Shown: positions 17,335-62,467 of the stretch, piece by piece
How positions within the stretch are numbered: position 1 is the stretch's first letter
Layout: every line of letters begins with the position of its first letter
Origin: a virus
Length of the DNA stretch: 64,000 bases
Virus record (IMG/VR): IMGVR_UViG_3300045976_000096
Span: 1 to 64,000 of that record
Reading direction: 5' to 3' (one strand)
The notes under the pieces: model-generated
What the model was told of the DNA's origin: nothing
Seen by the model: the letters and a program-made list of their open reading frames with translations, nothing else
Database searches by the model: none
Position numbers and translations under genes: made by a program

Positions 17335-17781
17335 ATGTCTTATCACATTGAAACGCATTATCTGGAGCACATCGGCGGCACCAAGTTCTATGAGACGGTG
17401 CGCATCAGCGAGCCATCCGGCCCGTGCCTCCTGATCAAGCGCTGGGGCGCCATCGGCGTCAAGAACGGCGGCGGCCAGACCAAGTACGAGCGCGGCGACC
17501 AGGCCACCGTGCTGGGCGAGGAGCGCCAGATCCTCAACGAGAAGATGAAGAAGGGCCACAGCGAAACGCCGTTCGCCTACGGTCTGCACAAGTCGAACCG
17601 GTCCACTCTGTCGGCCGATGTGCTGCAGATCGCCGTTCACGAGCACCACGGCAGGGAAATCGCCGAATACGTTACCGAGTACTTCGGTCTCGGCGCGCCC
17701 GGCGCCGTGGTCAGCGAGGAGCCGCACGCCCCGGCACCGGCCGCGAGCGAAATGCAGGACGAGCGCTGGGGGAGTTGGTAA
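17335..17781 (+). CDS. WGR-domain-like protein; ends WGSW
   Basis: TKFYE...LIKRWGAIG...GQTK pattern. Confidence 0.6.
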   Translation: MSYHIETHYLEHIGGTKFYETVRISEPSGPCLLIKRWGAIGVKNGGGQTKYERGDQATVLGEERQILNEKMKKGHSETPFAYGLHKSNRSTLSADVLQIAVHEHHGREIAEYVTEYFGLGAPGAVVSEEPHAPAPAASEMQDERWGSW

Positions 17782-17993
17782 TGACGACGGTGACGCTGGC
17801 ATTTGAACATGACGCGATTGCCGACTTCGTCGAACGCCTGACGCCTGACATGCAAACCGCGGTGCGCCAAAACATGCTGTGGAACCTGCGCAACGCCATC
17901 GACTTCGAGCGCCGCCGAAAGCAGGAGCACGAAGAACTTGAACAATACATCACAGAAATCGCCGACAAGGGCGAGCACTGGGCCACATGGTAA
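17781..17993 (+). CDS. Hypothetical protein; ends WATW
   Basis: GGGAG RBS, TAATG coupling. Confidence 0.65.
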   Translation: MTTVTLAFEHDAIADFVERLTPDMQTAVRQNMLWNLRNAIDFERRRKQEHEELEQYITEIADKGEHWATW

Positions 17994-18003
17994 GGAGAAC
18001 CCG

Positions 18004-18669
18004 ATGATCAACGAACCCATCAATCACGACACGCCGCACCCGGCCAGCGCCAGCGCCGGCCCGGACAACGCCTACTACCTGCGTCACTGCGCCGACATCG
18101 AGCGCGGCCCGGCCTACGCGGCCTGCCTGTCGCGCCTGCACGACATCGACAAGGGCGTGGCTAACGAGCGTACCAGCCAGTGCGAAAAGGCAGTGCACGA
18201 AAAGCGCTGCATCGCCGCCGGCATGCGCGAACAGGAGACCCTGGCAGGCAAGGCGCTGTTCTACTTCCCGCGCAGCAACAAGCCATTCCTGCCGGTGCAG
18301 GTCGCGGGCGACTTCGGCATCCTGATCACCAACCTGACCGATCCCGCACTGGTCCCGAAGAAGGGCGCGCCTGCGCCCGCGAGAAAGCCCGTAGCGCCCG
18401 CCAAAACGCTCGACGAGCACCTGACCCACGCGACCACCGCCGGCTTCGCAGAAGCGCTGAATAGTGCGATTGCGGACACGCCTGCCCGATCGGCAGACGA
18501 ACCGGCAAAACCCGCGCCCGCAATCACCCCGAAACCCGCGCCAGTGGCGGCTCCCCAGCCGCCGGCGCAACCGGCAAAGCCGGCCCTGGCGATGCTGCCG
18601 GGGGAAACGCCTTTGCAATACGCCCGCCGCCGTCTCGCGGCCAATACCACCAAAACTGAGGACGCATGA
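18004..18669 (+). CDS. Hypothetical protein with Cys-rich N-terminus and Pro/Ala linker
   Basis: AAGGAG RBS; coupled to ligase. Confidence 0.7.
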   Translation: MINEPINHDTPHPASASAGPDNAYYLRHCADIERGPAYAACLSRLHDIDKGVANERTSQCEKAVHEKRCIAAGMREQETLAGKALFYFPRSNKPFLPVQVAGDFGILITNLTDPALVPKKGAPAPARKPVAPAKTLDEHLTHATTAGFAEALNSAIADTPARSADEPAKPAPAITPKPAPVAAPQPPAQPAKPALAMLPGETPLQYARRRLAANTTKTEDA

Positions 18670-20072
18670 ACTCTAACGAAATTTTCGACCTGATCGAACA
18701 GGTCGCCCGCACGCCTGGGAAGAACGACAAGATCGCGCTGTTGAAGAACAGCGCCGGCGACGAAATGCTCAAGCAGGTGATGGCGGCCGCCTACAACCCG
18801 CTGACCAGCTATGGCATCCGCAAGGTGCCCGAACAGAATCATGAGGCGGTGCGCGGTGGCCGCGAATTCGTGGAACTGACTTGGCAGCTGGTCAGCGACA
18901 TGGCTGCGCGCAAGCTGACTGGCCACGCCATGCTGGCGGCAGTACAGGATGAAATGAACGAGCTGGCGCCTAAAAGCGCAGAGTTGCTCAAGCGCATCAT
19001 CCTGAAGGACATGCGCGCCGGCTTCGACGAGGGCACGGTCGCGAAAGTCTGGCCCGGCCTGGTGCCGGACTTCCCATACATGCGCTGCTGCCTGCCGAAG
19101 GACGCCAAGATGGAAGCCTGGCCGTGGGCCGACGGCAACATCAGCCAGGAAAAAGCCGACGGCATGTTCGCCAACGTCAACCATGAGGAAGGCGGCAACG
19201 TCTTCATCTACAGCCGGCAGGGCACCATGTTCCCGATGGAGAAGTTCGAGGCGCTGGCCGACGCGGTGCGACACGCACTCGCGCGCGGCACGCAGAACCA
19301 CGGCGAAATCCTGGTGCTGCGCGACGGGCAAGTGCTGGCGCGCGAAATCGGCAACGGCATCATGAACTCGGTTCTGAAGGGCGGCGATTTCGGCCCAGGC
19401 GAAGTCCCGATGTTCCTCGTCTGGGACCAGATTCCGCTGGCTGCCGTTCAGCCCAAGGGCAAGGTCGACACGCCCTACGCGGCCCGCCTGGCCGGCCTGA
19501 TTCAGCAGTTGCGGCGCGTGCCGGGCAGTGGCGCGGTCCAGTTGATCCCGACCCGGATCGTCCGCTCGCTCGAGGACGCCTACAAGCACTACGGCGAACT
19601 GCTGGCCCAAGGCAAGGAAGGCACCATCATCAAGAACCGCAACGCGATCTGGAAGGATGGCACCAGCAAGGAGCAGGTCAAGCTGAAACTGGAATTCGAG
19701 GTCGACCTGGAAGTGACGGCGATCGTGCCGGGCAACGCCAACACCAAGAACGCTGGCCGCGCCGGCTCCCTGTCGTGCGAGACGTCCGACGGCCTCCTGG
19801 TGGTCGACGTGGCCATCAAGGGCGAGGCGATGCGCGACGACGTCGACGCCAACCCGGACAGCTGGATCGGCAAGATCATGCCCGTCACGGCCAACATGAT
19901 CATGAAGCCGAGCGCGTCGGGCGACATGCACTCCCTGTTCCTGCCGCGCTTCACCCAGGCCACGCCGCGCGCCGACAAGACGGTCGCGGACACCTTGCCA
20001 CGCGCGCTGGCCATCGAGGACGCCGCCAAGCAGGGCAAGAAGATCGCCGACGACTGGAAGGAGGCAGCATGA
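18666..20072 (+). CDS. ATP-dependent DNA ligase
   Basis: QEKADG (KxDG), EGTIIK, KLK motifs. Confidence 0.9.
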   Translation: MNSNEIFDLIEQVARTPGKNDKIALLKNSAGDEMLKQVMAAAYNPLTSYGIRKVPEQNHEAVRGGREFVELTWQLVSDMAARKLTGHAMLAAVQDEMNELAPKSAELLKRIILKDMRAGFDEGTVAKVWPGLVPDFPYMRCCLPKDAKMEAWPWADGNISQEKADGMFANVNHEEGGNVFIYSRQGTMFPMEKFEALADAVRHALARGTQNHGEILVLRDGQVLAREIGNGIMNSVLKGGDFGPGEVPMFLVWDQIPLAAVQPKGKVDTPYAARLAGLIQQLRRVPGSGAVQLIPTRIVRSLEDAYKHYGELLAQGKEGTIIKNRNAIWKDGTSKEQVKLKLEFEVDLEVTAIVPGNANTKNAGRAGSLSCETSDGLLVVDVAIKGEAMRDDVDANPDSWIGKIMPVTANMIMKPSASGDMHSLFLPRFTQATPRADKTVADTLPRALAIEDAAKQGKKIADDWKEAA

Positions 20073-20431
20073 AGATCACCGGAGAGCAGATCGCCGAACA
20101 GCTGCGCGCCGCAGGCAAGGAAGTGCAGTATTTCCCGCTTCAGCTGAGCGCGCCGAACCGTTCGCCGTTCACGATGGGCAGCTATAGCCTGAACACGATC
20201 GCCGAAGCGGTCAACGCGATCCCTGGCATTGCCATGATCGAGACGATGGAGCTGGTCGGCGTCAAGGGCGGCAAGGAAATTCCATTGGGTGAAGCGCCGC
20301 TTTCGCCCGAATTGAAGGCTCGCGAAATCTGTCGCCAGTATGGCGAAGACCCGGACGACGAAGATAGCCTGATCATGGGCGCGCTCATGGAACTGATTAA
20401 CTGGCAGAACAAGCAAAGGATTGCAGTATGA
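20069..20431 (+). CDS. Hypothetical protein
   Basis: GGAGG RBS, ATGA overlap. Confidence 0.65.
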   Translation: MKITGEQIAEQLRAAGKEVQYFPLQLSAPNRSPFTMGSYSLNTIAEAVNAIPGIAMIETMELVGVKGGKEIPLGEAPLSPELKAREICRQYGEDPDDEDSLIMGALMELINWQNKQRIAV

Positions 20432-21212: not shown

Positions 21213-21215
21213 TCC

Positions 21216-22464: not shown

Positions 22465-24450
22465 ATGTCAATGAGCGAACGGATCATGATCATGCGGGAG
22501 GCGACCGTCACCCTCACGCAAATGCTGGCGGGCAAGGGCGTGCAAGTCACGCAGCGCGGCGTCAGCGCTTTCGTGCGGGCCGACAAGGACGGCAAGCCGT
22601 ATCTGGTCAACCTGCCGTATATCCCCGATAATGCCGACGAGGTGCTGCTGGACGCGATCCAGGGCTTCCTCGACCACGAGGTCGCGCACATCCTGTTCAC
22701 CGAGTTCCCGCTGATGGAGCAAGCACACAAGGCCGGCGCCGGCGGCATGCTGAACCTGATCGAGGACAGCCGCATCGAGCGCGAAATGGCCAACCGCTTC
22801 CAGGGCAGCGCCGAGAACATGGCGCGCATGGGTAAGTTCTTCCTCGACAAGTACACGCTGCCGCGCATGAAGGAGGCGCTGAAAACGGGCGACACCGACA
22901 CGCTGGTCGGCGTCTTGACCGTGCCGCTGGTGCGCATGATGGCCGGCCAGCAAATCTTCGCCGAGTTCATGAAGGACAAGATGCATCACGTCCAGGACGT
23001 CTACGACAAGATCAAGGACTTGCAGCCGAAGATCGCCCGCGTCGGCAGCACCCGCGAATGCCTGGACCTGGCCAAGACCATCGTCAAGCGTCTGCGCGAC
23101 GGCGACCCGGCCGCCGGCAGCGATCCCGACCCGAGCGCCCCGCCACCGCCGAAGGGCGCGGGCGGCAAGAGCAAAGGCGCCGGCAAGGCATCCAAGCCGG
23201 GCAAGAAAGACCCCGACGAGGAGGAAAAGAAGGACGAGGAAGAAGGCGAGGGCGAGGAGGAAGGCAAGCCCGAGGACGAGGAAGGCGAGGAAGAAGCCGC
23301 CGCAGCCGGTGGCGACGAGGAAGCCGACGGTGATGAAGGCGACGGCAAGGGCGAACTGGCGAGCGACCAGGACGAGGGTGACGGCGAAGGCGGCGAAGCG
23401 GCCGGCGGCCCGATGACCCCGCCGGACCCGGACGCCGAAACCGATGTCAGCCAGTCGTCGGCGATTTCGTGGGAGGCGATCGACCGCGAGACGGCGAAGG
23501 ACTACGACGATGTCGCGTCCGGCCTGATCACCGACAAGGCCACCGCGATGGCCAAGCACGCCGAATACCTCGTCTACTCGACCGACCAGGACATCATCGA
23601 AACCATGAAGGTCGGCAGCGGCTACAAGGACACGATGCTGACCGGGCTGCAGGACGCGGTCGACCACATGGTCGGGCCGCTGCAGAAGGACTTGGAGCGC
23701 GCGATCGCGGCCAAGAGCCTGTCTCACTGGAACCCTGGCCACCGCAGCGGGCGCCTGAACGCGGCCGCGCTGTCGCGCCTGGCCGTCAACGACCCGCGCG
23801 TGTTCCGCCGCAAGACCGAGACGACAACCAAGGACGTGGCGGTGCAGCTGGTGGTCGACATGTCCGGTTCGATGGATGGCGAGAAGATCACCACTGCGGC
23901 CCAGTCGGCGTACGCGCTGGCGGCCACCCTGGACCGGATCGGCATCACCAGCGAAGTGATCTGCTTCACCACCGGCATGGGATATTGCGGCGACCTTTCC
24001 ACGCTGCACGCGGAGGAGGCCAAGATCGGACGCAAGTTCAGCCGCGCGGAGCAGCTGTACATGCCGATCCTCAAGGGTGCCGGCGAGCGCATGTCCACCG
24101 ATGTCAAGAAGCGCTTCGCCTGGCTGCCGCACTGCTCGTCGCTGCGCAACAACGTCGATGGCGAATCGGTGCAGATTGCCGGGCACCGCCTGCTGTCCAG
24201 GAAGGAAAAGGGTAAGATCCTGATCGTCCTGTCCGACGGCGCGCCGCACGCATACGGTGAAACCCGCACGCTCGGGCCGCACCTGAAAAAGGTGGTGGAG
24301 AACCTGACCCGTGCCGGCGTGAAAGTGATTGGCATCGGCATCCAGTCGTCCGAGGTTCGCAAGTACTATCCGAAGAACTTCATGATCAACAACGTGTCCG
24401 AGCTGCCGTCTGTCGTGATGAAGGAATTGCGCCAGCTGATTGCCGCATAA
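22465..24450 (+). CDS. CobT-like vWA protein (N-terminal HExxH domain, acidic linker, vWA domain)
   Basis: DHEVAH...IEDSRIE; E/D/G-rich linker; MIDAS DMSGSM...LSDG. Confidence 0.85.
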   Translation: MSMSERIMIMREATVTLTQMLAGKGVQVTQRGVSAFVRADKDGKPYLVNLPYIPDNADEVLLDAIQGFLDHEVAHILFTEFPLMEQAHKAGAGGMLNLIEDSRIEREMANRFQGSAENMARMGKFFLDKYTLPRMKEALKTGDTDTLVGVLTVPLVRMMAGQQIFAEFMKDKMHHVQDVYDKIKDLQPKIARVGSTRECLDLAKTIVKRLRDGDPAAGSDPDPSAPPPPKGAGGKSKGAGKASKPGKKDPDEEEKKDEEEGEGEEEGKPEDEEGEEEAAAAGGDEEADGDEGDGKGELASDQDEGDGEGGEAAGGPMTPPDPDAETDVSQSSAISWEAIDRETAKDYDDVASGLITDKATAMAKHAEYLVYSTDQDIIETMKVGSGYKDTMLTGLQDAVDHMVGPLQKDLERAIAAKSLSHWNPGHRSGRLNAAALSRLAVNDPRVFRRKTETTTKDVAVQLVVDMSGSMDGEKITTAAQSAYALAATLDRIGITSEVICFTTGMGYCGDLSTLHAEEAKIGRKFSRAEQLYMPILKGAGERMSTDVKKRFAWLPHCSSLRNNVDGESVQIAGHRLLSRKEKGKILIVLSDGAPHAYGETRTLGPHLKKVVENLTRAGVKVIGIGIQSSEVRKYYPKNFMINNVSELPSVVMKELRQLIAA

Positions 24451-24476: not shown

Positions 24477-24518
24477 AGTCAATGCTGACTTGCGAATCCG
24501 GGCAGGGCTGCGTATGAT
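24477..24518 (+). promoter_or_regulatory. Palindrome + promoter for cobS
   Basis: AGTCAatgcTGACT-7 bp-CCGGG-N10-TATGAT. Confidence 0.75.
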
Positions 24519-24579
24519 TCTACCTGTCGCAGCAATATTTTTACTAATCGGGCAAGTCGCCCACAAGGAGGATGTCTTA

Positions 24580-25779
24580 ATGAGCACGAACGAAAAAATC
24601 AGCTGCCAACTGTGCGGCGCCCAGGAGCATGTGATCAAGGCCCACCTGGCAAAGGATCACCCCGGCGTCAGCGTCGAGCAGTACCAGGCCCAGTTCCCGA
24701 GCGCGCCGCTGATGTCGGCGTTCGCCGCCGAACTGCTGGAGAAGAAGCGTCGCGAGAAGGCGCAACAGGAACGTGCTCAAGCGCCGGCCGAAACCGAGAT
24801 GGCGATGGCTGGCACCGCCGCCAACGTCACCGCGCTGGTGCCGAAGGGCCACCCGACCAAGATGCCGCTGCACGAAGTCTTCGAGCTTGGCAAGGTCAAG
24901 GCAGCGTTGTCGAGCAAGGGCGACCCGATCCCGATCGCCGTGCTGTCGGCCCACGACGAGCAGGACATGGTGCCGGCCGTTTCGGACAACTACGTCTACG
25001 ACATCGACGAACTGAAAAACGTGATTCTGGCGCTGGAACTGAAAATCCCGGCGCTGGTCTGGGGCCACAAGGGGTCGGGCAAGTCCGAACTGATCGAACA
25101 GGTCTGCGCCCGCACCAACCGGCCGATGATGCGCGTCCAGCACACCGTCAACACCGAAGAAAGCCACATCGTCGGCCAGTGGACCGTCAAGGGCGGCGCG
25201 ACCGAATTCGAGCTTGGCCCGCTGCCGCTGGCGATGCTCAACGGCTGGGTGTTCTGCGCCGACGAGTACGACTTCGGTATGCCGTCGGTCCTCGCGGTCT
25301 ATCAGGCGGTCCTCGAAGGTAAGTCACTCGTGATCAAAGAAGCACCGGCGGACAAGCGCATCATCAAACCGCACCCGAACTTTCGCTTCGTCGCCACCGG
25401 CAACACCAACGGCTCGGGCGACGAGTCGGGCCTGTATCAGGGCACCCTGATTCAGAACTCGGCCAACTACGACCGCTTCGGCATGGTGATCAACAAGAAG
25501 TACATGGACAAGAAGGCCGAGAGCCAGATTCTCCAGAACCACTGCAAGCTGGTGGCCGACGACGCCGACAAGATGGTCGAGTTCGCCACCTTGGTGCGCC
25601 AGGCGTACGACGGGGCCAAGATGAGCGACACGATTTCGCCGCGTACCCTGATCTACGCCAGCCGCATCGGCCTGATGCGCGGCTCGTTCCGGGTCGGCCT
25701 GCAGGTCTCGTTCATCAACAAGCTGTCCAAGGTCGACCGCGAGGTGGCCGACGGCCTGGCCCAGCGCATCTTCGCTTAA
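24580..25779 (+). CDS. CobS/MoxR-like AAA+ ATPase with N-terminal C2H2 finger
   Basis: CQLC...HLAKDH; GHKGSGKS; ADEYD; HPNFRFVATGNTNG; YDRF. Confidence 0.9.
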   Translation: MSTNEKISCQLCGAQEHVIKAHLAKDHPGVSVEQYQAQFPSAPLMSAFAAELLEKKRREKAQQERAQAPAETEMAMAGTAANVTALVPKGHPTKMPLHEVFELGKVKAALSSKGDPIPIAVLSAHDEQDMVPAVSDNYVYDIDELKNVILALELKIPALVWGHKGSGKSELIEQVCARTNRPMMRVQHTVNTEESHIVGQWTVKGGATEFELGPLPLAMLNGWVFCADEYDFGMPSVLAVYQAVLEGKSLVIKEAPADKRIIKPHPNFRFVATGNTNGSGDESGLYQGTLIQNSANYDRFGMVINKKYMDKKAESQILQNHCKLVADDADKMVEFATLVRQAYDGAKMSDTISPRTLIYASRIGLMRGSFRVGLQVSFINKLSKVDREVADGLAQRIFA

Positions 25780-25805: not shown

Positions 25806-26561
25806 ATGCAAGAGAAAGCGCTCGACTTTCAGTCCAACATCGGACTGGTTCACTTCCACACCAAGCGCGGGTTCGCGATGGCGCAGGCAGCGGGCGTTCC
25901 TCTCACCTACGAGGACATGTTCCAGGAGGCCAGTCTGGCCTTCGTCTTGACCACGCACGCCTACAAGCCCGAGTTGGGCTACGCCTTCTCGGCGTACTTC
26001 ACGCGGGCCTGCTACACGCAGTTCGGCAAGGCGATCGCCCGCTTCACCGGCGTCAAGCGCCTGAACGACGCGATGAAGCAGGAAATCGCCGAGCGCGACG
26101 AGGAGAACGCGCGCCGGCGCGCCGCCGGCGAAGCGGAACTGCCGTCGATGCGCTACGACGTCATGGCGGCCAACTTCTCGGACATGGAAGCGCAGCGCGA
26201 CGATGACGGTTCGGAACCGTACGAGTCGTCGCTGATGGCGGACACGCAGTCGCCCGAGGAAATCGTGGAGACAAGGCAGCTGATGGAACAGGCGATGGCC
26301 AACTTGTCGCCGCTCGCATCCCTGATCATGGAGTGGCTACGCGACCCGCCCGAGGCGCTGCTGGCCGAACTGAAAAGCCAGCGCGCGCATGCGATCGTCG
26401 CTGAAGCGGCCGGCGCCAGCACACGCGGTCTGGACGACGGCATTTCGCTCAAGAACGTGAAGAAGTTCCTCACCCTGATGGGTGAGGTATCCGAGCGCGA
26501 ACTGGTTCTGGCGGAAGCGGAACTGCGCCGCGCCGTCAAGTACATCGAGGAGGCAGCGTAA
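25806..26561 (+). CDS. Sigma70-family-like factor (region 2 recognisable)
   Basis: NIGLVH...YEDMFQEA...AYKPELGYAFSAYF aligns with NLRLV...DLIQEG...FDPERGYKFSTYA; SPEE...LSP region-4-like part is degenerate. Confidence 0.65.
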   Translation: MQEKALDFQSNIGLVHFHTKRGFAMAQAAGVPLTYEDMFQEASLAFVLTTHAYKPELGYAFSAYFTRACYTQFGKAIARFTGVKRLNDAMKQEIAERDEENARRRAAGEAELPSMRYDVMAANFSDMEAQRDDDGSEPYESSLMADTQSPEEIVETRQLMEQAMANLSPLASLIMEWLRDPPEALLAELKSQRAHAIVAEAAGASTRGLDDGISLKNVKKFLTLMGEVSERELVLAEAELRRAVKYIEEAA

Positions 26562-27217
26562 TGGAACAGGCACCAGGATGTTTCGGTGCCGCGAGCGTCT
26601 ACAGTTCGGACTCGTCCGTCTGCCAGGCGTGCGTGGGCTACCAGGCGTGCGGCGCGGCTGCGCTGGTCACGCTGGAGGCGATTCGCGCCACGGTCGACGT
26701 GCGCGACCTGCTCAAGAAGCACGCCGCCGCGCGCGCAAAGGCCAATCCGGCGCCCGCCGCGCCGCCGGCCCCGGTCGAGAAGTCGCCGCTGCCCGTCAAG
26801 CAGCCGTGCGTGATCGACAAGCCAATCGAGCGCAAGACGCCACAGGAAAAGGTGGAGTTCTCCCTGACCGCGGACATGACCGCCACCATCGCGCGCATCG
26901 CGGCCCAGAACAAGAAGGCCGCTATCCAGGCAACCCGGTTGTGCGAGCAAGGGCACATGCGCATGCTGCGCGCCATGCTCCCGCGCGGGGGCAATCCCTT
27001 CGTCGAGAGCGGGCCAGCTTATCTGCGCGTGGTATGCGACGCCCTGATCGGTGGCGGGTTCACGCGCGCGCAACTGCGCGTCGACATGGCCGAGAAGCTG
27101 GGCTGGACCGAGGACACCGCGGCCTCGCATATCTCCCAGGCGATCGCCATTCTGGGCGCGTTCAGGATTGTCGGTAAGGACGGTGACAAAATCGTTCTGC
27201 ATCCTGCGCTGGGCTGA
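26561..27217 (+). CDS. Hypothetical protein, N-terminal Cys cluster and C-terminal winged-helix-like region
   Basis: PGCFG...CQACVGYQAC; LGWTEDTAASH. Confidence 0.65.
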   Translation: MEQAPGCFGAASVYSSDSSVCQACVGYQACGAAALVTLEAIRATVDVRDLLKKHAAARAKANPAPAAPPAPVEKSPLPVKQPCVIDKPIERKTPQEKVEFSLTADMTATIARIAAQNKKAAIQATRLCEQGHMRMLRAMLPRGGNPFVESGPAYLRVVCDALIGGGFTRAQLRVDMAEKLGWTEDTAASHISQAIAILGAFRIVGKDGDKIVLHPALG

Positions 27218-27249: not shown

Positions 27250-27500
27250 ATGAACGGTGGAACATACAGCGAAGCCTTGAAGGTCGGCTTCACCCCGGAG
27301 CAGGCGGGCTTCCTTGGTCGCATGAGCGGCGAGACCCGCGAAGAAGCCATCGAAGCGATCATGAAGAAGGGCATCGAAGCCGAGCACGCGCACAAGCGGG
27401 CGCGCGACGAGTGGATCATGAAGTGGGCCGACCGCGGCTATCGCGTCTGCGGCTACGTCGGTCTGTTCGCAGTGGCTTTCTGTGTCGGGAAGGCGTTCGC

Positions 27501-27504
<4 letters not shown>
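27250..27504 (+). CDS. Small protein with C-terminal TM segment
   Basis: RBS; ATGA overlap with dnaE. Confidence 0.6.
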
Positions 27505-30953
<3,449 letters not shown>

Positions 30954-31036: not shown

Positions 31037-32290
31037 ATGGCTACTGCCCAAAAAGAAATTCCCATCGACGACGACGAACTGGACGGCCTGATGGCCCAGC
31101 TGGAGGCGGAAACCGCCGGCGTGGTCGACGCCCCGAGCGCCAGCGCGGCGCCGGCAGCCGGCGACGACGAGGTCGACCTGTCGGGCCTGGAAGACGACCT
31201 GACCCCGTCCGCCGCGGCCGGCGGCGCACCTGACGCCGATGAGCTGGCTGAAATCGTCGCGGCCGCCGACGAAGCCGAGCAGCTGGCCGCCACCGCTGCA
31301 GCCGCCGCGCATCAGACCAAGTCGATGGCCCAGGCGGCCGCCGGCAAGATCACCAAATTCGACCCGCCCGAGGAAATTCTGGTCGCCGACGACGCCCCGT
31401 TCGAGGTGGACGATCTGAGCAAACTGAAACCGTCCGGCACAATCGAATTGTCGAGCAAAGATGCCGCCATGCTGGCCGAACTGGTCGAAAACCCGCCGCC
31501 GCCGAACGACGCGCTCAAGAAAGCTGCCGCTCGCGCCGCCCCCGCCCCCGACCCCGACGCCGAGCTGGAATCCCTGGCGGCGGAACTGGAAGCCGGCGCC
31601 GTGACCGAAGCCAAGATGGCGCCGCCGACCGCGAACGCCAAGCAGACCCGGATGGATGCCGAACTGGCGGCGCTCGCCGCCAAGGTGAAAGCGTCACCCG
31701 CCCCGGCGCCGAAGGCTGACGCCATCAAGAGCACGATCCCGGACGACGACGTCGCCCACCCGAACCCGACGCCGGCCCCGGCCGCCAGCAAACCGCCCAA
31801 GTCGAGCCACCTGATCGACCCCGCCGAGTTCAAGCGCGAGACCAAGGTGTCCATGACCAACCTGGACGAGTGCATGATCGAGCAGTCGAGCCTGCGCGCC
31901 TACTACGGCACGCTGGCGGCCGACGCCGAAGCCGAACACGCGAAGCTGAAACTGCGCCACGACATCATCGAGGCGCGCGTCTACGACAAGCACCGCAAGG
32001 CCCTGGCCGACGCCGGCGAGAAGGTGACGGAAAAGATGGTCGAGAACGCCGTCAAGCAAGACCCGGAATGGGCGCAGTCCAAGCTGCGTGTGATCGAAGC
32101 CGAGCAGGTCGCCAACCGCAACCGCGCCTGCGTCGACTCGCTCAAGGACCGCAAGGACATGCTGGTGCAGCTGGGCGCCGACCGCCGCGAGGAAGGCAAG
32201 GGCCAGGTGCGCATTCTGGAAGCGGCCGCCAGCCACGAGGACAAGCGCGCCGCCGCGATGGCGGCCCTGGCCAAGAGCCGCGGCATGTAA
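31037..32290 (+). CDS. UvsY-like recombination mediator with long acidic disordered N-terminus
   Basis: C-terminal helical domain KVTEKMVENAVKQDP...SLKDRKDML; precedes SSB and RecA. Confidence 0.55.
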   Translation: MATAQKEIPIDDDELDGLMAQLEAETAGVVDAPSASAAPAAGDDEVDLSGLEDDLTPSAAAGGAPDADELAEIVAAADEAEQLAATAAAAAHQTKSMAQAAAGKITKFDPPEEILVADDAPFEVDDLSKLKPSGTIELSSKDAAMLAELVENPPPPNDALKKAAARAAPAPDPDAELESLAAELEAGAVTEAKMAPPTANAKQTRMDAELAALAAKVKASPAPAPKADAIKSTIPDDDVAHPNPTPAPAASKPPKSSHLIDPAEFKRETKVSMTNLDECMIEQSSLRAYYGTLAADAEAEHAKLKLRHDIIEARVYDKHRKALADAGEKVTEKMVENAVKQDPEWAQSKLRVIEAEQVANRNRACVDSLKDRKDMLVQLGADRREEGKGQVRILEAAASHEDKRAAAMAALAKSRGM

Positions 32291-35660: not shown

Positions 35661-36035
35661 ATGAGCGTTGAATTTACGGACATTCTGCAGTTGCCCAAGC
35701 ATAAGGGCAAGACGGTCCAGCAGGTGTACGACACTGAGCCGAGCTACCTGCTGTGGCTGCGTGATCAAAAGCTGGCCGGTGGGCGCAGCGACTATTTCGA
35801 CGGCGAAGTCCTGCGTGCGCTGAACAAGGCGATCGACAAGGACAAACGCCTGCTCAAGAAATTCGACAAGTGGACCGAATTGTCCGACGGGCGCTTCTCG
35901 CCGATGAAGCCGAAAGCCGACGGCACCACGCCGGCGGAAAAGAAGGACGACGAAGACGTCAAGCCGACGATGCAGGAAATCGACGACGCCCAGGCGAAAG
36001 CGCGGGCTTATTCAGGATTGTGGGGGAGCTTCTAA
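35661..36035 (+). CDS. Hypothetical protein; ends WGSF
   Basis: KHKGKTVQQV...PSYLLWL resembles the ExoX C-terminal/DUF3820-like motif. Confidence 0.65.
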   Translation: MSVEFTDILQLPKHKGKTVQQVYDTEPSYLLWLRDQKLAGGRSDYFDGEVLRALNKAIDKDKRLLKKFDKWTELSDGRFSPMKPKADGTTPAEKKDDEDVKPTMQEIDDAQAKARAYSGLWGSF

Positions 36036-42072: not shown

Positions 42073-42675
42073 ATGAGCATTATCAAAATCGTAGGACAAG
42101 ACCCGAGTATGCGGAATTTCGGCGTCGTCCATGCCGACCTGGACGTGGACACGCTGAAATTCACCATCACCAGCATGCGCGTGATTCGCACCGAAGCCGA
42201 GAAGGACAAGGCGGTGCGCAAGGTTGTGCGCAAGAACAGCGAAGACTTGGAGCGCGCGCGCCTGCTGCATGCCGGTGCCATCGAGTCCATCGAGAACGTG
42301 ACGATGGCCTTCATCGAGGTGCCGGTCGGCAGCCAGGATGCGCGCGCAATGGCAAGCTACGGGATGTGCCTGGGCGTGATCGCGGCGGTGGCCAACACCA
42401 TCCCGATCATTCAGGTCACGCCCGGCGAGGTCAAGCTGGCCGGCTTCGGCTCCAAGGATGCGACCAAGGCCGAAATGATCGAGGCGATGATGAAGAAACA
42501 CCCGGAAGCGCCCTGGCCCATGCGCAAGCTCAAGGGAGAAATGGTGCCGAACGCCGCCGAGTGCGAACACCTCGCCGACGCCTGCGCGGCGATCGAGGCG
42601 GGCCTGCAGACCGATGAATTCCGCCAGGCGATCAGCGTGTTCAAGCGGATGGTCAAGACGGGCGCCATCGCCTGA
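42073..42675 (+). CDS. ruvC: RuvC-like Holliday junction resolvase
   Basis: GQDPSMRNFG, FIEVP, TPGEVK, ATKAEM, HLADA. Confidence 0.85.
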   Translation: MSIIKIVGQDPSMRNFGVVHADLDVDTLKFTITSMRVIRTEAEKDKAVRKVVRKNSEDLERARLLHAGAIESIENVTMAFIEVPVGSQDARAMASYGMCLGVIAAVANTIPIIQVTPGEVKLAGFGSKDATKAEMIEAMMKKHPEAPWPMRKLKGEMVPNAAECEHLADACAAIEAGLQTDEFRQAISVFKRMVKTGAIA

Positions 42676-42684
42676 TTTGCCGCG

Positions 42685-42717
42685 TCCGCAGAGATAAGTC
42701 ACAAGTGATCTATAATG
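42685..42717 (+). repeat. 33-bp direct repeat, copy 1 (palindrome + TATAAT)
   Basis: TCCGCAGAGATAAGTCACAAGTGATCTATAATG, identical to 46745-46777. Confidence 0.95.
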
Positions 42718-42744
42718 GGTTTGTGACTTATCTCGGAGAGAAAC

Positions 42745-43329
42745 GTGGCAATCAGTAAATTCGGAGACCTGTTCTCCTCGGTGTGGTCGACCAGCAAGCC
42801 TGGTGACATGAAGAATGGCGCTGGCGCACCCCACATCAACGACGCGCTGGGCGGCGCCAGCGGCAAGCCCGCCGCCCCGGCGCCGAGAATCACCAGCAGC
42901 CTCGACGACCCGCTGTATGACCCGTATGGCAACATCATCGGTGGCCACCGCCGCCATGCCGCGCGCGAGGAATTGAAGCGCTCCCTGACCGCCGGCGGTG
43001 GCGAAGGCGTCACCGTTAGCGAATCTAGCGTGCGTTTCAAGGGCGGCGAAATCACCGCGGCAGGCAACATGCGCATCGGCCCATCCGAGGAAGAACTCAA
43101 CAAGCGCTTCGCGGAATTCGTTGAAAAGTACAAGAAGGACAGCGAAGCGGCCAGGGCCGCCAGGGAGGAAATCGCAGCCGACATGGACAAGCTGCCGCCC
43201 GCCCGGTCTTCCCTGAACCTGGACGCGCTGCGCGCCAGCCTGGCTGCCAAAGAACACGACCTCAAGAAAAAGGCCGAGGAGTCCAAGGTCAACCGCGACC
43301 GCCCGCAGAACGTGGACGATTCCTGGTAA
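42745..43329 (+). CDS. Hypothetical protein; ends DDSW
   Basis: GGAGAG RBS, GTG start. Confidence 0.65.
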   Translation: MAISKFGDLFSSVWSTSKPGDMKNGAGAPHINDALGGASGKPAAPAPRITSSLDDPLYDPYGNIIGGHRRHAAREELKRSLTAGGGEGVTVSESSVRFKGGEITAAGNMRIGPSEEELNKRFAEFVEKYKKDSEAARAAREEIAADMDKLPPARSSLNLDALRASLAAKEHDLKKKAEESKVNRDRPQNVDDSW

Positions 43330-43348
43330 TTTCACCGAACCCGTAGTA

Positions 43349-43372
43349 AGTCATCGCTGACATAGCTATAAT
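43349..43372 (+). promoter_or_regulatory. Palindrome + -10 (nrdA)
   Basis: AGTCAtcgcTGACA-tagc-TATAAT. Confidence 0.75.
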
Positions 43373-43408
43373 CCTCACCCCACCACCCCACCCACGAAGG
43401 AAGTAATA

Positions 43409-45685
43409 ATGCAAGTAATCAAGCGCGACGGTTCGCGTGAGCCGCGTGACGTATCGAAGATCCACAAGCAGACCGGCTGGGCCTGTGAAGGCCTGAACGT
43501 GTCGCAGTCCGAGCTGGAGCTTGCGGCCGAACTGCAGCTGTTCGATGGCATCAAGACCAGCCAGATCCACGACGCCTTGATCAATGGCGCGGCCAGCCTG
43601 ATTTCGCTCGAGTGCCAGGACGCGACCTTCGCGGCGGCCCGCCTCGTGCTGCTCAAGGTCTACAAGGAAGCCTGGAACGACATCGCCTACCCGCACCTGA
43701 AAACCTACATCGAGGCCGGCATCGGCGCCGAGAAGCTGCACCCGTCGCTGGGTCGCCTGTTCGACCTCGACAAGCTGAACGCGGCCATCGTCCCGACCCG
43801 CGATCGCCAGTTCAACTTCATCGGCATCCAGACCCTCGCCGACCGCTACCTGATCCGCAACAAGGCGCGCCGCGTGATCGAACTGCCGCAGCACATGTGG
43901 ATGCGCGTGGCGATGGGCCTGGCGCTGCGCGAAACCGAACCGACGGATCGCGCCATCGAGTTCTACAACGTGCTGTCCACGTTCGACTTCATGTCGTCGA
44001 CGCCGACCCTGTTCAACGCCGGCACGCTGCACAGCCAGCTGGCCAGCTGCTTCCTGAACACGGTGAAGGACCAGATTTCGGCCGGCGAGGACGACCCCAA
44101 ATACGCCTCGATCTACGGCACCATCGAGGAGTGCGCCAACCTGTCCAAGTACGCCGGCGGCATCGGCACCGACTGGACCCCGGTGCGCGCCGAGGGCGAC
44201 TGGATTCGCGGCACCGACGGCATTTCGTCGGGCGTGGTGCCTTACCTGAAGGTCTACAACGACACCGCCGTGGCCGTGAACCAGGGCGGCAAGCGCCAGG
44301 GTTCGTTCGCGCCCTACCTGGAGCTGTGGCACCCGGACGCGTACGACTTCATGGACCTCAAGAAGGAATCGGGCGACGAGCGCCGCCGCGCGCACGACGT
44401 CTATCCGGCGTGGTGGGCGTCGGACCTGTTCTTCAAGCGTGTGGAAGCGCGCGGCACCTGGAGCTTCTTCTCGCCCAAGGACCACCCGGAACTGCACGAA
44501 CTGTTCGGCGACGCCTTCGAGGCGCGCTACGAGCAGCTGGAAGCCGAGGGCAAGTTCGTGCGTCAGGTGCCGGCCATCGACATGTGGAAACGCATGCTGG
44601 CCTCGCTGTTCGAGACCGGTCACCCGTGGATCACGTTCAAGGACGAAATCAACCGCCGCAGCCCGCAGCAGCACGTCGGCGTGGTGCACTCGTCCAACCT
44701 CTGCACCGAAATCACGCTGAACACGTCCGACGACGAAACCGCCGTCTGCAACATCGGCAGCGTCAACGCGGCGAACCACATCTACAAGGGCAAGCTGGAC
44801 GTCGAGCGCCTGCGTCAGACCGTCACCACCGCGATGCGCATGCTGGACAACGTGATCGACATCAACTTCTATCCGTCGCCGCGCGCCAAGAAGTCGAACC
44901 TGCGCCACCGCCCGGTCGGCCTGGGCATCATGGGCTACACCGAATACCTCGTCCAGCAGGGCATCGATTGGGAAAGCCAGGCGCACCTGGACGCGGCCGA
45001 CGAACTGATGGAGTACTTCTCGTACTTCGCCATCGAGGCGTCGATGAACCTGGCACGCGAGCGCGGCGCCTACTCTACCTTCCCTGGCTCGCTGTGGTCG
45101 CAAGGCATCCTGCCGATGGATACCGGCGCCAAGGGTGTGCGCGCCGAACTGGTGACGCGCGCCACGGTCCTGCCGTGGGATGCGCTGCGCCAGAAGGTCG
45201 TCACCTACGGCATGCGCAACAGCAACACCATGGCGATCGCCCCGACCGCGACCATCAGCAACATCGTCGGCACCACCCCGACCATCGAGCCGATCTTCCA
45301 GCGCGAGTACACGAAAAAGAACCAGTCCGGCTCGTTCCTGGTGACGGACCCGTGCCTGCGCTACGGCCGCCCGGACCTGTGCAAGGAGGCGTTTGAAATC
45401 GACGCCGACTGGATGATCGACGCCGGTGCCGTGCGCCAGTTCTGGCTCGACCAGGCCCAGTCGCTCAACATCTTCGTGCCGTTCGGCATCAAGGGTGCGC
45501 GCCTGTCGCAGATTTACGTACGCGCGTGGAAGCGCAAGCTGAAAACCACCTACTACCTGCGCGGCCAGAGCGCAAAGAAGGAAGAAGCGCCGGTGATCAA
45601 GGAAGCGCCGGTGGTGGTGGCCGAGGAAGACATGACCAACAAACTTTGCTCTCTTGATAATCCTGAGTGCGAATCTTGCCAATGA
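43409..45685 (+). CDS. nrdA: Ribonucleotide reductase class Ia alpha subunit
   Basis: ATP cone VIKRDG, STPTLFNAG, SNLCTE, APTATIS, KTTYY, C-terminal CESC. Confidence 0.96.
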   Translation: MQVIKRDGSREPRDVSKIHKQTGWACEGLNVSQSELELAAELQLFDGIKTSQIHDALINGAASLISLECQDATFAAARLVLLKVYKEAWNDIAYPHLKTYIEAGIGAEKLHPSLGRLFDLDKLNAAIVPTRDRQFNFIGIQTLADRYLIRNKARRVIELPQHMWMRVAMGLALRETEPTDRAIEFYNVLSTFDFMSSTPTLFNAGTLHSQLASCFLNTVKDQISAGEDDPKYASIYGTIEECANLSKYAGGIGTDWTPVRAEGDWIRGTDGISSGVVPYLKVYNDTAVAVNQGGKRQGSFAPYLELWHPDAYDFMDLKKESGDERRRAHDVYPAWWASDLFFKRVEARGTWSFFSPKDHPELHELFGDAFEARYEQLEAEGKFVRQVPAIDMWKRMLASLFETGHPWITFKDEINRRSPQQHVGVVHSSNLCTEITLNTSDDETAVCNIGSVNAANHIYKGKLDVERLRQTVTTAMRMLDNVIDINFYPSPRAKKSNLRHRPVGLGIMGYTEYLVQQGIDWESQAHLDAADELMEYFSYFAIEASMNLARERGAYSTFPGSLWSQGILPMDTGAKGVRAELVTRATVLPWDALRQKVVTYGMRNSNTMAIAPTATISNIVGTTPTIEPIFQREYTKKNQSGSFLVTDPCLRYGRPDLCKEAFEIDADWMIDAGAVRQFWLDQAQSLNIFVPFGIKGARLSQIYVRAWKRKLKTTYYLRGQSAKKEEAPVIKEAPVVVAEEDMTNKLCSLDNPECESCQ

Positions 45686-52974: not shown

Positions 52975-53586
52975 ATGCCGACCGGATACACGCACGCGCT
53001 GACCGAGCGCGACCTGAGCTTCCAGGAATACGCACTGACCTGCGCGCGCGCCTTTGGCGCCTTCGTTCATATGCGCGACGAGCCGCTCGGCGCGCCGCTG
53101 CGCCCAGACACCGTCACGTCATACTACGACGACAAGCTGACCGAAGCCAAAGCCGACCTGGACAAGTTCCAGCACATGTCGCTGGAAGATGCGCGCGTCC
53201 TGTACAACGCCGAACGTGCCGAACGGCGCACGCGTGCCGAGCAGCGCATCGAGGAAATGAAGGTGATCGAGGCGCGCTATCGCGCGCTCAAGGAAAAGAT
53301 CGACGCCTGGGCGCCGCCGACACCGGAACACCAGAGCCTCAAGCGCTTCATGCTGGAGCAGTTGATGGTATCGGCCAGCGATTACGACTCGTCCTATTAC
53401 GCGGAAGACGCCGCCCTGGCGCCGACCGTGACCGACGCCGAAGCGAGCGAATGGGTGCAGGAAAAGATCCGGGCCGCCATCAAGCAGATTGGCTACTGCA
53501 GCGACCAGCGTCGCAAGGAGCAGGAGCGCGTCGACCAGCGCAACGAATGGGCGCGCCAACTGCAGGAGTCGTTGAAAGATGGATAA
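52975..53586 (+). CDS. Phage hypothetical protein (starts MPTGYT)
   Basis: CARAFGA...WAPPTPEHQSLKRFMLEQL. Confidence 0.7.
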   Translation: MPTGYTHALTERDLSFQEYALTCARAFGAFVHMRDEPLGAPLRPDTVTSYYDDKLTEAKADLDKFQHMSLEDARVLYNAERAERRTRAEQRIEEMKVIEARYRALKEKIDAWAPPTPEHQSLKRFMLEQLMVSASDYDSSYYAEDAALAPTVTDAEASEWVQEKIRAAIKQIGYCSDQRRKEQERVDQRNEWARQLQESLKDG

Positions 53587-54130
53587 AAAGGTTGAGCTGA
53601 AGGATTTCGTCGGCAAGGAGTTCGACCTGACGGCGGTCTCCACCGCCGAGGTCGTCGCCAACGATAAATATGGCGACTTCGCAAACGCCAGCACCATCAC
53701 CTTCACGCTCGATGGCGTGACGTATCAGGCGGTGGAAGACCCGAGCGACGGCTACCGGTCCTCGCTTCGGGAAATCTTCATCTGCGACACGGAACCGGCA
53801 AACCGGTTTCCAGCCCAGCGCGTGAAGGCGACGTGGAAGGAGCCGGGTTCTTACGACAACGACACGGTCGAATTCCGTTCGGTCGCCTCGGACCTGATCG
53901 TGATGGAAGTCGGCACCGACCATGTGAATGACTATTATCCATGCTTCGTCAGCAATTTCGAGCCGAAGAACATGGACATCAACCGCACGGACGACATCCG
54001 GCAGAAGATCGCGATGGAGGAAGCCAAGCGACTCGAGGACGAACGGCATGCCCAAGATGTGCGGGACAAGCTGAACGCCAAAGCAAAGCTGGACGCGCAG
54101 CGCGACGACGCAGGCTGGGGCACCTTTTGA
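53579..54130 (+). CDS. Hypothetical protein; ends WGTF
   Basis: EDPSDGYRS, VGTDHVNDYYP. Confidence 0.7.
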   Translation: MDKKVELKDFVGKEFDLTAVSTAEVVANDKYGDFANASTITFTLDGVTYQAVEDPSDGYRSSLREIFICDTEPANRFPAQRVKATWKEPGSYDNDTVEFRSVASDLIVMEVGTDHVNDYYPCFVSNFEPKNMDINRTDDIRQKIAMEEAKRLEDERHAQDVRDKLNAKAKLDAQRDDAGWGTF

Positions 54131-60181: not shown

Positions 60182-60402
60182 GCGAGTGGGCGGTCAGCGG
60201 CACGCCGGCGATCGGCGTACACGAAACGGCGGTGGCCTACAGCGACGTCATCAAGCCCCGGCGCAAGCGCTACCAGCACTGGAACGGCCGCTTCTGGGGC
60301 GCCATCGGCACCACCCCGGAACAGGCTCGCGCATACCGCGACGAGCCAACCCAATATCTGCCCGCGTACTGGCGGGCCATCGAGGAGGAAGTATTCGCAT
60401 GA
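60178..60402 (+). CDS. Small Trp-rich protein, paralog 3
   Basis: PAIGVH...HWNGRFW...WRAI. Confidence 0.6.
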   Translation: MSEWAVSGTPAIGVHETAVAYSDVIKPRRKRYQHWNGRFWGAIGTTPEQARAYRDEPTQYLPAYWRAIEEEVFA

Positions 60403-61689: not shown

Positions 61690-61781
61690 GCGCGCTGCGC
61701 GGCGGGTGCGCGTTGGCCACACCAGCGCCGCATGCCCGCTGCGATAATGCATTCATCGACAACAACCCAAAAGGGAAAATC

Positions 61782-61994
61782 ATGCAGCAGACCACCCGCG
61801 CGGCCCAGCCCGCCACGCCCATCACCGACCCGAGCTTCGCTTACGTGTCGTCGGCGGCGACCGACATCACGGCGACCCTCAAGCGCTTCGGCTGGACCGA
61901 GCCGGATCGCGAACGCCAGCGCGCCACCAAGCGCCGCCTGAACCCGATTGACGAGACGGGCCTGGGCGAGCAGCTGGTCGACGCGCGCCTGTAA
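61782..61994 (+). CDS. Hypothetical protein
   Basis: AAGGGA RBS; FAYVSSAATDI. Confidence 0.6.
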   Translation: MQQTTRAAQPATPITDPSFAYVSSAATDITATLKRFGWTEPDRERQRATKRRLNPIDETGLGEQLVDARL

Positions 61995-61999
61995 CGGTC

Positions 62000-62013
62000 A
62001 GTCACAACTGAGA
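62000..62013 (+). promoter_or_regulatory. Palindrome overlapping the RBS of gene 62021
   Basis: AGTCAcaacTGAGA. Confidence 0.65.
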
Positions 62014-62020
62014 GAGCAAC

Positions 62021-62467
62021 ATGGCAACAGTCTTATACCTGGACCACGACGGCAACCGGATCAGCCTTGAGCAGTACAAGGCGCATCAGGCCGACCCGAC
62101 CTACACGCAGGTACACGCCTACGACAACGGTCGTGTGCGCGCCGTCGTGACCTGGATCGGCCGCATCGTCGACCCCGGCTCGACCTTCCCGGACTACTAC
62201 AAGCTGTTCAAGGTGGAAGTCTGGAACTACACCGAGGGCGGCGAGCTGGCGAAAGATCCTGGCTATCCGAAATTCTTCCCGACCAGGGACAAGGCGGTCG
62301 AGGAATACAACTTCTTCGTCGCGCGCTGGAGCGAATCCGAGCTGGATGACGAGGGGCAGCTGATCGAGGCGGGCAACACCCTGACACCTCCGCCACCACC
62401 CAACCCGGACGCGCCAAGCTCGGCGCCGCCGGCCGACGACGACATTGCAGGAGTAGGAGCATGGTAA
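62021..62467 (+). CDS. Hypothetical protein; ends VGAW
   Basis: Pro-rich linker before the tail; palindrome upstream. Confidence 0.7.
   Translation: MATVLYLDHDGNRISLEQYKAHQADPTYTQVHAYDNGRVRAVVTWIGRIVDPGSTFPDYYKLFKVEVWNYTEGGELAKDPGYPKFFPTRDKAVEEYNFFVARWSESELDDEGQLIEAGNTLTPPPPPNPDAPSSAPPADDDIAGVGAW

Follow-up and report, generated by a model that had tools for sequence, protein, structure and literature searches.

The first 64 kb of the virus record IMGVR_UViG_3300045976_000096 in IMG/VR (64,000 nucleotides, hereafter the window) contain eight genes whose protein products end, directly before the stop codon, in short related peptides closing on Trp or Phe. The record is a single contig of 112,422 bp with 62% GC, and nearly all of its genes lie on one strand. 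An earlier note on this DNA had proposed that the eight peptides form a shared C-terminal tag, and all eight open reading frames and C-terminal residues that it quoted proved exact. The tagged genes of the window are as follows, with the two classes of tail, A and B, defined below.

17335-17781, plus strand: WGR-domain protein of 148 amino acids with a disordered linker, lying between primase and ligase; class A tail W-G-S-W, codons 17767-17778.
17781-17993, plus strand: protein of 70 amino acids; tail W-A-T-W, codons 17979-17990.
35661-36035, plus strand: protein of 124 amino acids with a weak ExoX-like_C match; tail W-G-S-F, codons 36021-36032.
41107-41766, plus strand: protein encoded right after the Rad50-like gene; tail Y-x-[DE]-F-G-S-W, codons 41752-41763.
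41760-42059, plus strand: coiled-coil protein of 99 amino acids; class B tail D-I-P-Q-S-P-T-G-A-W, codons 42027-42056.
42745-43329, plus strand: protein of 194 amino acids; class B tail D-R-P-Q-N-V-D-D-S-W, codons 43297-43326, with a promoter-like region downstream.
53579-54130, plus strand: protein of 183 amino acids; tail W-G-T-F, codons 54116-54127, with a terminator-like hairpin downstream.
62021-62467, plus strand: protein of 148 amino acids with a Pro/Ala/acidic linker; tail V-G-A-W, codons 62453-62464.

Inspection of the tails reveals two flavours. Class A reads (Y-x2-3)-[DE]-[FW]-G-[SA]-[WFY] and is present at 17335, 17781, 35661, 41107 and 53579, as well as at 69117 outside the window. 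Class B reads D-x-P-x-[TS]-x(2-5)-small-W and is present at 41760 and 42745, and outside the window at 65828 and in a minus-strand operon at 78.4-80.5 kb. The protein of 62021 (..VGAW) has a small-Trp end without matching the class B pattern, and its membership of class B is probable. All eight carriers of the earlier note are real, although its picture of eight proteins with one tag needs two corrections: the full genome holds about 18 carriers, those outside the window lying at 65828-66169, 69117-69497, 72698-73003 and in the minus-strand operon, and 41760, 42745 and probably 62021 bear the second, longer flavour. Because intermediate tails occur (for example D-K-P-x-P-Y-G-D-E-F-G-S-F), classes A and B may be variants of one system. 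In every carrier the tag sits at most one small residue from the free C-terminus, and copies of the motif inside proteins appear as ordinary structural segments, not tags. When the last 14 residues are removed, the 18 carriers show no mutual BLASTP similarity at E<0.01, so the bodies are as unrelated as the earlier note had them. The tails are also confined to the gene classes that it named, occurring on 18 of 127 non-structural genes of this genome and on none of the 48 structural, packaging or lysis genes (Fisher P 0.004).

To quantify the excess of C-terminal Trp, genes were called in the whole genome and in four complete IMG/VR relatives with a codon-usage caller written for this analysis, for which starts, and hence overlap classes, are approximate. 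In the source genome 14 of 175 genes end in Trp (six inside the window), against a Trp content of 1.31% of residues (binomial P 1e-7). The relatives give 10/157, 16/171, 13/161 and 16/157, with P between 3e-5 and 4e-10 over the five genomes, and the excess that had been suspected from six genes is therefore non-random and repeated. Applied to the Rhizobium phage RHEph10, at a similar GC content (60%), the same caller finds a single Trp-ending gene among 144, and an artefact of the gene caller or of GC was ruled out on that basis. The enrichment extends to the motif itself: [FWY][GA][STAGE][FWY] is found 6-7 times per genome at the C-terminal end (final four residues, or final five minus one), where 0.08-0.17 occurrences are expected from its internal frequency, and terminal [FWY][GA]x[FWY] lies 40-70x above expectation.

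The family of the WGR-domain protein at 17335 provides the deepest view of one tail. This protein scores 22 bits against Pfam WGR, exactly the cut-off, and Foldseek pairs it with the WGR domains of PARP1, PARP2 and PARP3 at a probability of 0.98-0.99, where E is only 0.03-0.1; it belongs to the WGR fold as seen in PARP1-3. In an AlphaFold2 model built from the family alignment, residues 1-120 have a predicted local distance difference test score (pLDDT) above 92, while residues 121-148 score about 49 and do not pack against the domain, in agreement with the proposal that the tag is exposed past a linker. A family profile searched against 1.84 billion proteins at E<=1e-3 retrieved 808 cluster representatives, and among the best 150 of these 144 end in class A tails (WGSW 76, WASW 28, others) and 3 more in W-[NE]-S-W. 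Fifty-five IMG/VR loci contain a WGR match, accompanied by a primase match in 54/55 and a ligase match in 53/55, with the exceptions ending at a contig edge, and the tail [DE]-R-G-x-x-W-[GA]-[STA]-[WF] is found in all 54 loci whose frame reaches a stop. Judged from the predicted structure, this terminal peptide, conserved beyond a disordered linker, has the hallmark of a short linear docking motif.

The remaining carriers likewise keep the tag while upstream sequence and neighbours change. The family of the protein encoded after Rad50, for which Pfam, PHROGs and the ESM Atlas returned nothing useful on function, retains FGSW, FGAW or FGTW at 24-59% identity. Orthologs of 17781-17993 end in WGAW, WATW or WASW, those of 62021 in VGAW or DAAW, and orthologs and paralogs of 35661 in WGSF, WGSY, WGAF or WGEF, while the ortholog of 53579 in relative G003 (40% identity) ends in WGSW. 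For class B, the ortholog of 41760-42059 in G002 ends in DRPQTEATW, and in G001-G005 the class B genes that are followed by the same promoter-like sequence as 42745 end in DRPQTAMDAW, DKPKTSEDAW, DQPVTAAGDAW, DVPENSSGAW and DKPMTVADDAW. The tails thus satisfy the generic description of a short linear motif, that is, a short conserved peptide in predicted disorder, attached to unrelated bodies and kept in orthologs while the flanks diverge.

Two further observations concern the class B genes. The promoter-like sequence at 43330-43400 (TATAGTAAGTCAT-like) is itself conserved directly 3' of class B-tailed genes, namely 42745 and its counterparts in L001, L002 and G002-G005, and in the window it stands upstream of the ribonucleotide reductase (RNR) genes. 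The minus-strand operon, at genome positions 78474-80521 and thus outside the window, encodes seven small proteins ending D-x-P-[QK]-T..W, in which the V-E-V-[IV]-W codons carry an extended Shine-Dalgarno (SD) sequence plus a GTGA or ATGGTGA overlap, so that tail and translational coupling signal are superimposed.

Such superposition raises the question of whether the tails are a nucleotide by-product, their last codons carrying the SD of the next gene or an overlapping start (GGGGGAG, GAGGTG, ATGGTAA, GTGA). Several findings weigh against a protein signal in this respect. Where start and stop overlap by 7 nt (ATGGTAA), the last residue can only be Trp or Cys; this is the case at 19 of the 69 Trp ends of the five genomes, and GTGA overlaps are present at 7 more, so that 26/69 Trp ends are mechanical, from 7-nt and 4-nt overlaps. 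At the gene ends 17781 and 36035 the W-G-S codons read TGGGGGAG (GGGGGAG), which is the SD of the next gene, whose start lies in TAATG; the terminal Trp of 62021 overlaps a possible ATG start (7-nt overlap) and is partly confounded; and in the minus-strand operon V-E-V-I-W is written as GTGGAGGTGATCTGGTGA, an almost perfect extended SD with a GTGA overlap.

In contrast, the enrichment persists once these signals are set aside. With overlap genes removed 43/636 genes still end in Trp (P 6e-18), and among genes without a close downstream gene the count is 21/387 (P 6e-8). The tag of 17781-17993 is not forced by overlap because the gene that follows has its own SD past the stop; a separate SD also lies 3' of the stop of 41760-42059, no gene downstream of 42745-43329 could impose an SD or overlap, and the ends 43329 and 54130 adjoin non-coding DNA, all four cases having been named beforehand as beyond the reach of overlap. 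Codon choice argues in the same direction. Among 45 distinct WGR members the Trp at -3 is invariant while Gly is written in four codons and Ser as AGY (28) or TCN (10), and GGAG/GAGG appears in 9/45 tails. Half of the members of the 35661 family encode W-G-A-F as TGG GGT GCG TTT, with no GGAG. In the post-Rad50 family the F-G-S-W codons vary (TTC/TTT, GGA/GGC, TCG/TCT/TCC/TCA/AGC), all three stop codons are used, and downstream contexts differ, some next genes having a separate SD. Because the peptide stays constant while codons, stops and neighbours vary, the tag is under selection as protein and not an SD by-product. An SD or overlap artefact was accordingly refuted as the whole explanation; it contributes at individual genes, here the ends 17781, 36035 and 62467, and we give a purely nucleotide origin next to no credence. 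Neither of two outcomes that the earlier note had named as counting against it, a tag lost from orthologs or one restricted to downstream ribosome-binding sites, was observed.

To follow the tails over greater distances, relatives of the source virus were compared. A DNA-level search among isolated phages found no close relative of this virus. By DnaE similarity (36-45% identity) the nearest isolates are RHEph10-type Rhizobium phages, Stenotrophomonas and Xanthomonas phages, Pseudomonas phage nickie and the Salmonella phage-plasmid SSU5 group. A contig of Massilia sp. TN1-12 (NZ_JBJCIU010000006.1, 112,962 bp) is, in its entirety, a relative with a 70% identical Rad50. From this sequence kinship the host of the source virus is probably an Oxalobacteraceae bacterium, and the element with its 112-kb genome is probably a phage-plasmid, a lifestyle suggested because the Massilia relative is a whole contig in a bacterial isolate. 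That isolate is also a candidate host for work in the laboratory.

Each distant lineage has its own dialect of the tail. In SSU5, SSU5_042 ends in ..GWATW and SSU5_076, encoded right after Rad50, in ..TWATW. In nickie, the post-primase protein ends in ..GWGAFG and two post-Rad50 proteins in ..DFGGWA and ..DIGGWA, each with one small residue after the aromatic. Outside the tail, these positional counterparts align poorly with the window proteins. In RHEph10, [FY]-G-[RM]-F closes six proteins, in most cases after Y-A-x-[NH]-P, among them the ortholog of 17335 (28% identical in the body) and the gene at the position of 17781. A concerted change of tail on all RHEph10 carriers points to a single co-evolving reader, as the earlier note had predicted in proposing a short linear motif read by one hub; protein-level conservation and disorder speak for the motif, and the single hub is the likely, though less firm, part of that proposal. 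Because the tail always lies within one small residue of the C-terminus, the free carboxylate is, on sequence grounds, probably part of the epitope.

A second set of tails surrounds ribonucleotide reductase in these phages. In nickie (42500-44862) two small proteins and NrdB end in ..IPEW, ..DVKW and ..GLEW, and in RHEph10 (7454-10364) NrdB ends in ..DDEF and glutaredoxin in ..DDDF. The small proteins of the RNR region may compete for the site on R1 to which the R2 tail binds.

Taken together, the tails probably represent a short linear motif that serves as a portable docking peptide at the C-terminus of otherwise unrelated non-structural proteins and is read by a common partner; this is the explanation we favour, with somewhat better than even confidence. 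Its architecture would run from a folded or coiled-coil body through a flexible linker to aromatic-Gly/Ala-small-aromatic, with the carboxylate at most one small residue off. The last aromatic and the carboxylate, together with the aromatic at -3, would plug into a pocket of one reader, and the motif would thereby tether about 18 unrelated early or accessory proteins to it. Two carrier families are ancient and belong to the replication and recombination modules: the protein with the WGR-type break- or nick-binding domain and the protein that follows Mre11-Rad50. From there the tag would have spread in this clade to about 10% of the proteome, small early-type proteins included. That one common reader exists we consider quite likely, and on whether the reader is phage-encoded our judgement is evenly balanced.

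Shared docking tails are already known in principle from SSB, clamp binders and T7. In the tails of single-stranded DNA-binding protein (SSB) and of T7 the last aromatic and the free carboxylate are essential, and in T7 two replisome proteins share a tail type and dock on one partner. Like the tag, the SSB C-terminal tip (..D-D-D-I-P-F-COOH) and the acidic Phe tails of T7 gp2.5 and gp4 combine a folded body, a disordered linker and a short end peptide (PMC10359462, PMC12339929). SSB differs in having one carrier and many readers, whereas many unrelated carriers are seen here, and the tag differs from both in its aromatic-Gly-small-aromatic form, with no Pro-Phe and with acidity optional. The gp32-like SSB of the phage ends in ..ALLGELPE, a T4-like acidic tail unlike the tag. 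The SSB-Ct definition (an acidic run and [IL]-P-F-COOH on an OB-fold SSB) does not fit, and Pfam and PHROGs gave no SSB family match for any of the eight carriers in the window, so that SSB tails, offered earlier as the closest analogy, serve as an analogy and not as a family to which the tag belongs.

Sliding-clamp-binding tails (bacterial QL[SD]LF; T4 gp43, gp33 and gp55 on gp45) are similar in that unrelated proteins present one short hydrophobic end motif to one hub, and different in that the tag has no Gln or Leu core. Across 84 tails Gln and Leu are not enriched at the positions required by the beta-clamp motif (Q-L-[SD]-L-F / Q-x-x-L-x-L), and a T4-type arrangement with a phage-encoded clamp as reader was not found, no phage-encoded sliding clamp being recognised. 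SspB-type adaptor tails, which bind ClpX, and ssrA-type degrons also resemble the tag, with a domain, a flexible linker and a short C-terminal peptide that tethers to an AAA+ machine; their sequences are different and their readers are host unfoldases, whereas about 10% of the phage proteome is tagged here.

The search for a reader starts from the genes that accompany the tag. As annotated with Pfam and PHROGs, the window contains in order a DnaB-like helicase (14259), primase (16137), ATP-dependent ligase (18666), CobT-like protein (22465), CobS-like protein (24490), a sigma-like protein, a DnaE-UDG fusion (27411-30953), gp32-like SSB (32428), FEN (33302), RecA-like recombinase (34250), Mre11 (37042), Rad50 (39129), RuvC-like resolvase (42073), RNR and ThyX. 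The universal core of the group comprises PhoH, 13045, DnaB, DnaG, ligase, CobT, CobS, 26561, DnaE-UDG, 31037, SSB, FEN, RecA-like, Mre11, Rad50, RuvC-like, RNR, 49832 and 57883.

Two members of this core merit description. The replicative polymerase, the DnaE at 27411-30953, contains PHP, Pol III alpha, fingers and HhH regions and a C-terminal domain of the uracil-DNA glycosylase (UDG) superfamily (Pfam UDG, residues 1031-1164), a stretch covered by tblastn in RHEph10, nickie and SSU5, and the RHEph10 annotation likewise notes a UDG-like domain. The 417-amino-acid product of 31037-32290, encoded directly 3' of DnaE in both the window and nickie, is conserved in RHEph10, nickie, SSU5 and 3/4 complete close relatives, with no match in G004. 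Its AlphaFold2 model (single sequence, mean pLDDT 58) is all-helical with a long C-terminal coiled-coil hairpin. As an all-helical coiled coil with no PDB sequence match, it was rejected as a phage sliding clamp in the role of reader. Also rejected was the second AAA+ protein, at 55432, which the earlier note had offered as a possible hub: it has a weak clamp-loader PHROG match, is missing from three complete tag-bearing relatives (G001-G003) and has a homolog only in G004.

The leading candidate is the pair of genes resembling cobalt chelatase subunits, for which MIDAS (metal-ion-dependent adhesion site) and von Willebrand factor A (vWA) elements were located as follows.

22465-24450, plus strand: CobT-like protein, candidate reader; HExxH motif (HEVAH) at residues 71-75 (22675-22689), acidic linker, vWA MIDAS D-M-S-G-S at residues 465-469 (23857-23871).
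24490-25779, plus strand: CobS-like MoxR-class AAA+ ATPase, candidate motor partner of CobT; Pfam AAA_5 and CbbQ_C.

The CobT-like protein matches Pfam CobT_C/VWA, has an M48-like N-domain and is present in every relative. Its HExxH, a zinc-peptidase motif, and its MIDAS are also intact in SSU5, RHEph10 and three plasmid homologs. The CobS-like ATPase is 33% identical to the IncC vcrx089-type ATPase and occurs in all complete relatives tested, among which no tag-bearing complete genome lacks cobS. A role as a cobalt chelatase is unlikely because CobN was not found in the Massilia host: PF02514 is without a match in Massilia sp. TN1-12, the carrier of the sister element, whose genome sequence spans 6.3 Mb with no stated completeness. 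None was seen in the phage either, so that the CobN client expected of an aerobic CobNST cobaltochelatase was found in neither element nor host.

CobS/CobT is favoured because plasmid modules built on the same two proteins also have shared tails of their own. In three unrelated plasmid modules, each with a CobS-like ATPase, DUF3150 and a VWA protein, the VWA protein is homologous to the phage CobT over its full length (E 1e-15 to 1e-26) and carries HExxH around residue 60-77 together with a DxSxS MIDAS. Only CobS and CobT are common by homology to the plasmid modules and the phage, and in each module the neighbours carry a common hydrophobic or aromatic C-terminus that is specific to that module. 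The tails are ..MSLFL and ..FALFL in Pseudomonas pZYPA187 and ..QYVVF, ..TIMVF and ..DGIVF in a Citrobacter plasmid. In the IncC plasmid pNDM10505 (8932-16925), the vcrx090-like protein ends in ..EDHFF, Bet in ..EGSYY, Exo in ..ETFYW and the DUF3150 protein in ..GDYFF, two or three aromatics following an acidic stretch.

The machinery itself has precedents. The cryo-EM structure of the true cobaltochelatase holoenzyme has CobN, its client, between the two CobT domains, the last CobN helices lying beside the MIDAS (bioRxiv 10.64898/2026.07.21.739949). In IncC, the CobS-like gene and its neighbour (vcrx089-090) mediate evasion of type I restriction and share an operon with ssb, bet and exo (PMC7498323); in its accessible part, this operon-defining paper makes no mention of the shared aromatic tails of the host-defence-evasion (hde) region. 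The phage pair resembles both the CobNST motor and the IncC hde operon vcrx089-093 in its AAA_5/CbbQ_C ATPase, M48-like N-domain, acidic linker and vWA-MIDAS, and differs in the absence of CobN and DUF3150 and in its tail sequences (bioRxiv 10.64898/2026.07.21.739949, 10.64898/2026.10.09.757910; PMC7498323); in the accessible parts of these papers no tail tag is described. A CobS/CobT-like motor with tail-sharing neighbours is thus matched in the ATPase, the CobT architecture and the shared lineage-specific tails, and not in the DUF3150 partner. By analogy, the best mechanistic precedent for a candidate CobT-vWA reader lies in the Ku-binding motifs of APLF, XLF, PAXX and CYREN, which are read by the vWA domains of Ku70/Ku80 (PMC10682503, PMC10413649, PMC8224183, with reference to PMC7495496). 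These motifs are short, often terminal and aromatic-containing, follow disordered linkers on unrelated DNA-repair factors, and dock on a vWA at DNA ends; Ku differs in being eukaryotic, in lacking sequence similarity and in that its vWA does not use the MIDAS.

Several findings weigh against CobS/CobT as the reader. Every other core gene co-occurs with the tag just as these two do, so that co-occurrence does not discriminate within the phage group. The nickie CobT, as annotated, has no HExxH. The plasmid tails differ in sequence from the phage tag, and the plasmid modules also hold SSB, recombinase and nuclease, so that a functional analogue could read the tails in both systems. Finally, DUF3150 was not detected in the proteins of 31037-32290, 13045-13770 or 26561-27217 at E up to 1, where an IncC control gave 4e-91. 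On balance a CobS/CobT-like machine is, by analogy with the plasmids, the leading candidate reader, a tentative assignment that we hold at somewhat below even confidence.

Should that assignment be correct, the tagged proteins would be adaptors or clients of the machine. The WGR domain would act as a sensor of nicks or ends and the post-Rad50 protein as a partner of Mre11-Rad50, and both would bring the reader to DNA ends, where the motor would act in DNA-end processing or defence evasion. Taken furthest, the phage and plasmid cobS/cobT genes would have no vitamin B12 role, and their products would form an ATP-driven machine for remodelling or processing, in which the vWA-MIDAS or HExxH domain captures the free aromatic C-termini of adaptors, with the tag as an address code, in lineage dialects, that brings the motor to DNA ends. 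This complete picture is speculative, and we regard it as doubtful in its entirety.

The same docking tag could instead be read by another conserved phage replication or recombination protein and so assemble a replisome or recombinosome. In every relative, one ancient carrier is flanked by primase and ligase and the other directly follows Rad50. In PARPs, DNA breaks are bound by the WGR fold, tails in T7 and T4 do the same assembly work, and the proteins in question (ligase, gp32-like SSB, RecA-like, Mre11-Rad50, DnaB, DnaE-UDG, 13045-13770 and 31037-32290) are universal in the group. None of them, however, is common by homology to the tail-sharing plasmid modules, this clade has many carriers that are small accessory proteins encoded far from the replication genes, and no clamp was found; for all these candidates jointly, such a reader seems unlikely, though well worth keeping in view. 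A sorting signal, for capsid loading and ejection with the DNA or for anchoring to the membrane or to each other, would suit carriers that are DNA-end or accessory proteins and possibly useful on entry, the absence of tags from structural genes, as expected for cargo, and the coiled coils of several carriers, which would give avidity. Capsid-free conjugative plasmids nevertheless show analogous tail sharing, two aromatics are too few for a membrane anchor, and the AlphaFold2 model of 17335 has the tail unpacked on its own domain, so we rate this account as highly improbable.

A further possibility is that the tail is a degradation or handover signal for a host machine (Lon, FtsH, ClpXP/ClpAP, a chaperone, the beta clamp or SSB partners) that sets the lifetime or location of early proteins. 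The position within one residue of the free C-terminus recalls ssrA-type degrons, the tails are exposed and aromatic, and the dialect tracks the host group (Salmonella WATW, Pseudomonas GGW[AS], Rhizobium FG[RM]F). Against this stand the absence of the defining residues of clamp-binding, SSB-Ct and ssrA motifs and the strict conservation of the tag on core replication proteins over very deep divergence, which is unusual for a degron. In addition, the 6.3-Mb Massilia sp. TN1-12 genome was scanned for Trp-ending tags of the form [W/F]-[G/A]-x-W with a TAA or TGA stop. Of 22 chromosomal sites, 12 of which have atypical middle residues, the best 10 all fall in non-coding-looking frames of 7-68 codons, with no real gene end and no plausible host gene bearing a Trp-type tag among them, whereas the resident 113-kb element contains three real gene ends of that type. 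Mimicry of a host motif was rejected on the strength of those 10 sites; by the same sequence comparison, a host reader to which host proteins, too, bind through this motif is unlikely, and a host signal in general seems to us improbable.

Literature searches yielded no paper on C-terminal Trp tags, on the tails of SSU5 or on DUF3150, and the motif, its dialects and its spread over about 10% of a proteome were undescribed in these searches, which were not aimed at the motif. The group that carries the tag includes SSU5-type phage-plasmids, found by plasmid search in Klebsiella, Escherichia, Salmonella and Acinetobacter, together with Pseudomonas and Rhizobium phages. Since SSU5 grows on Salmonella LT2 and a sister element resides in Massilia sp. 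TN1-12, standard genetics and pull-downs would suffice to test the idea. A four-residue handle is a direct bait for the reader and could assign function to phage cobS/cobT and to many orphan early proteins. If CobS/CobT does read the tag, a motor at DNA ends could shield or mend the DNA on entry or remove host defence nucleases from it, which would generalise the restriction evasion of the IncC vcrx089-090 pair.

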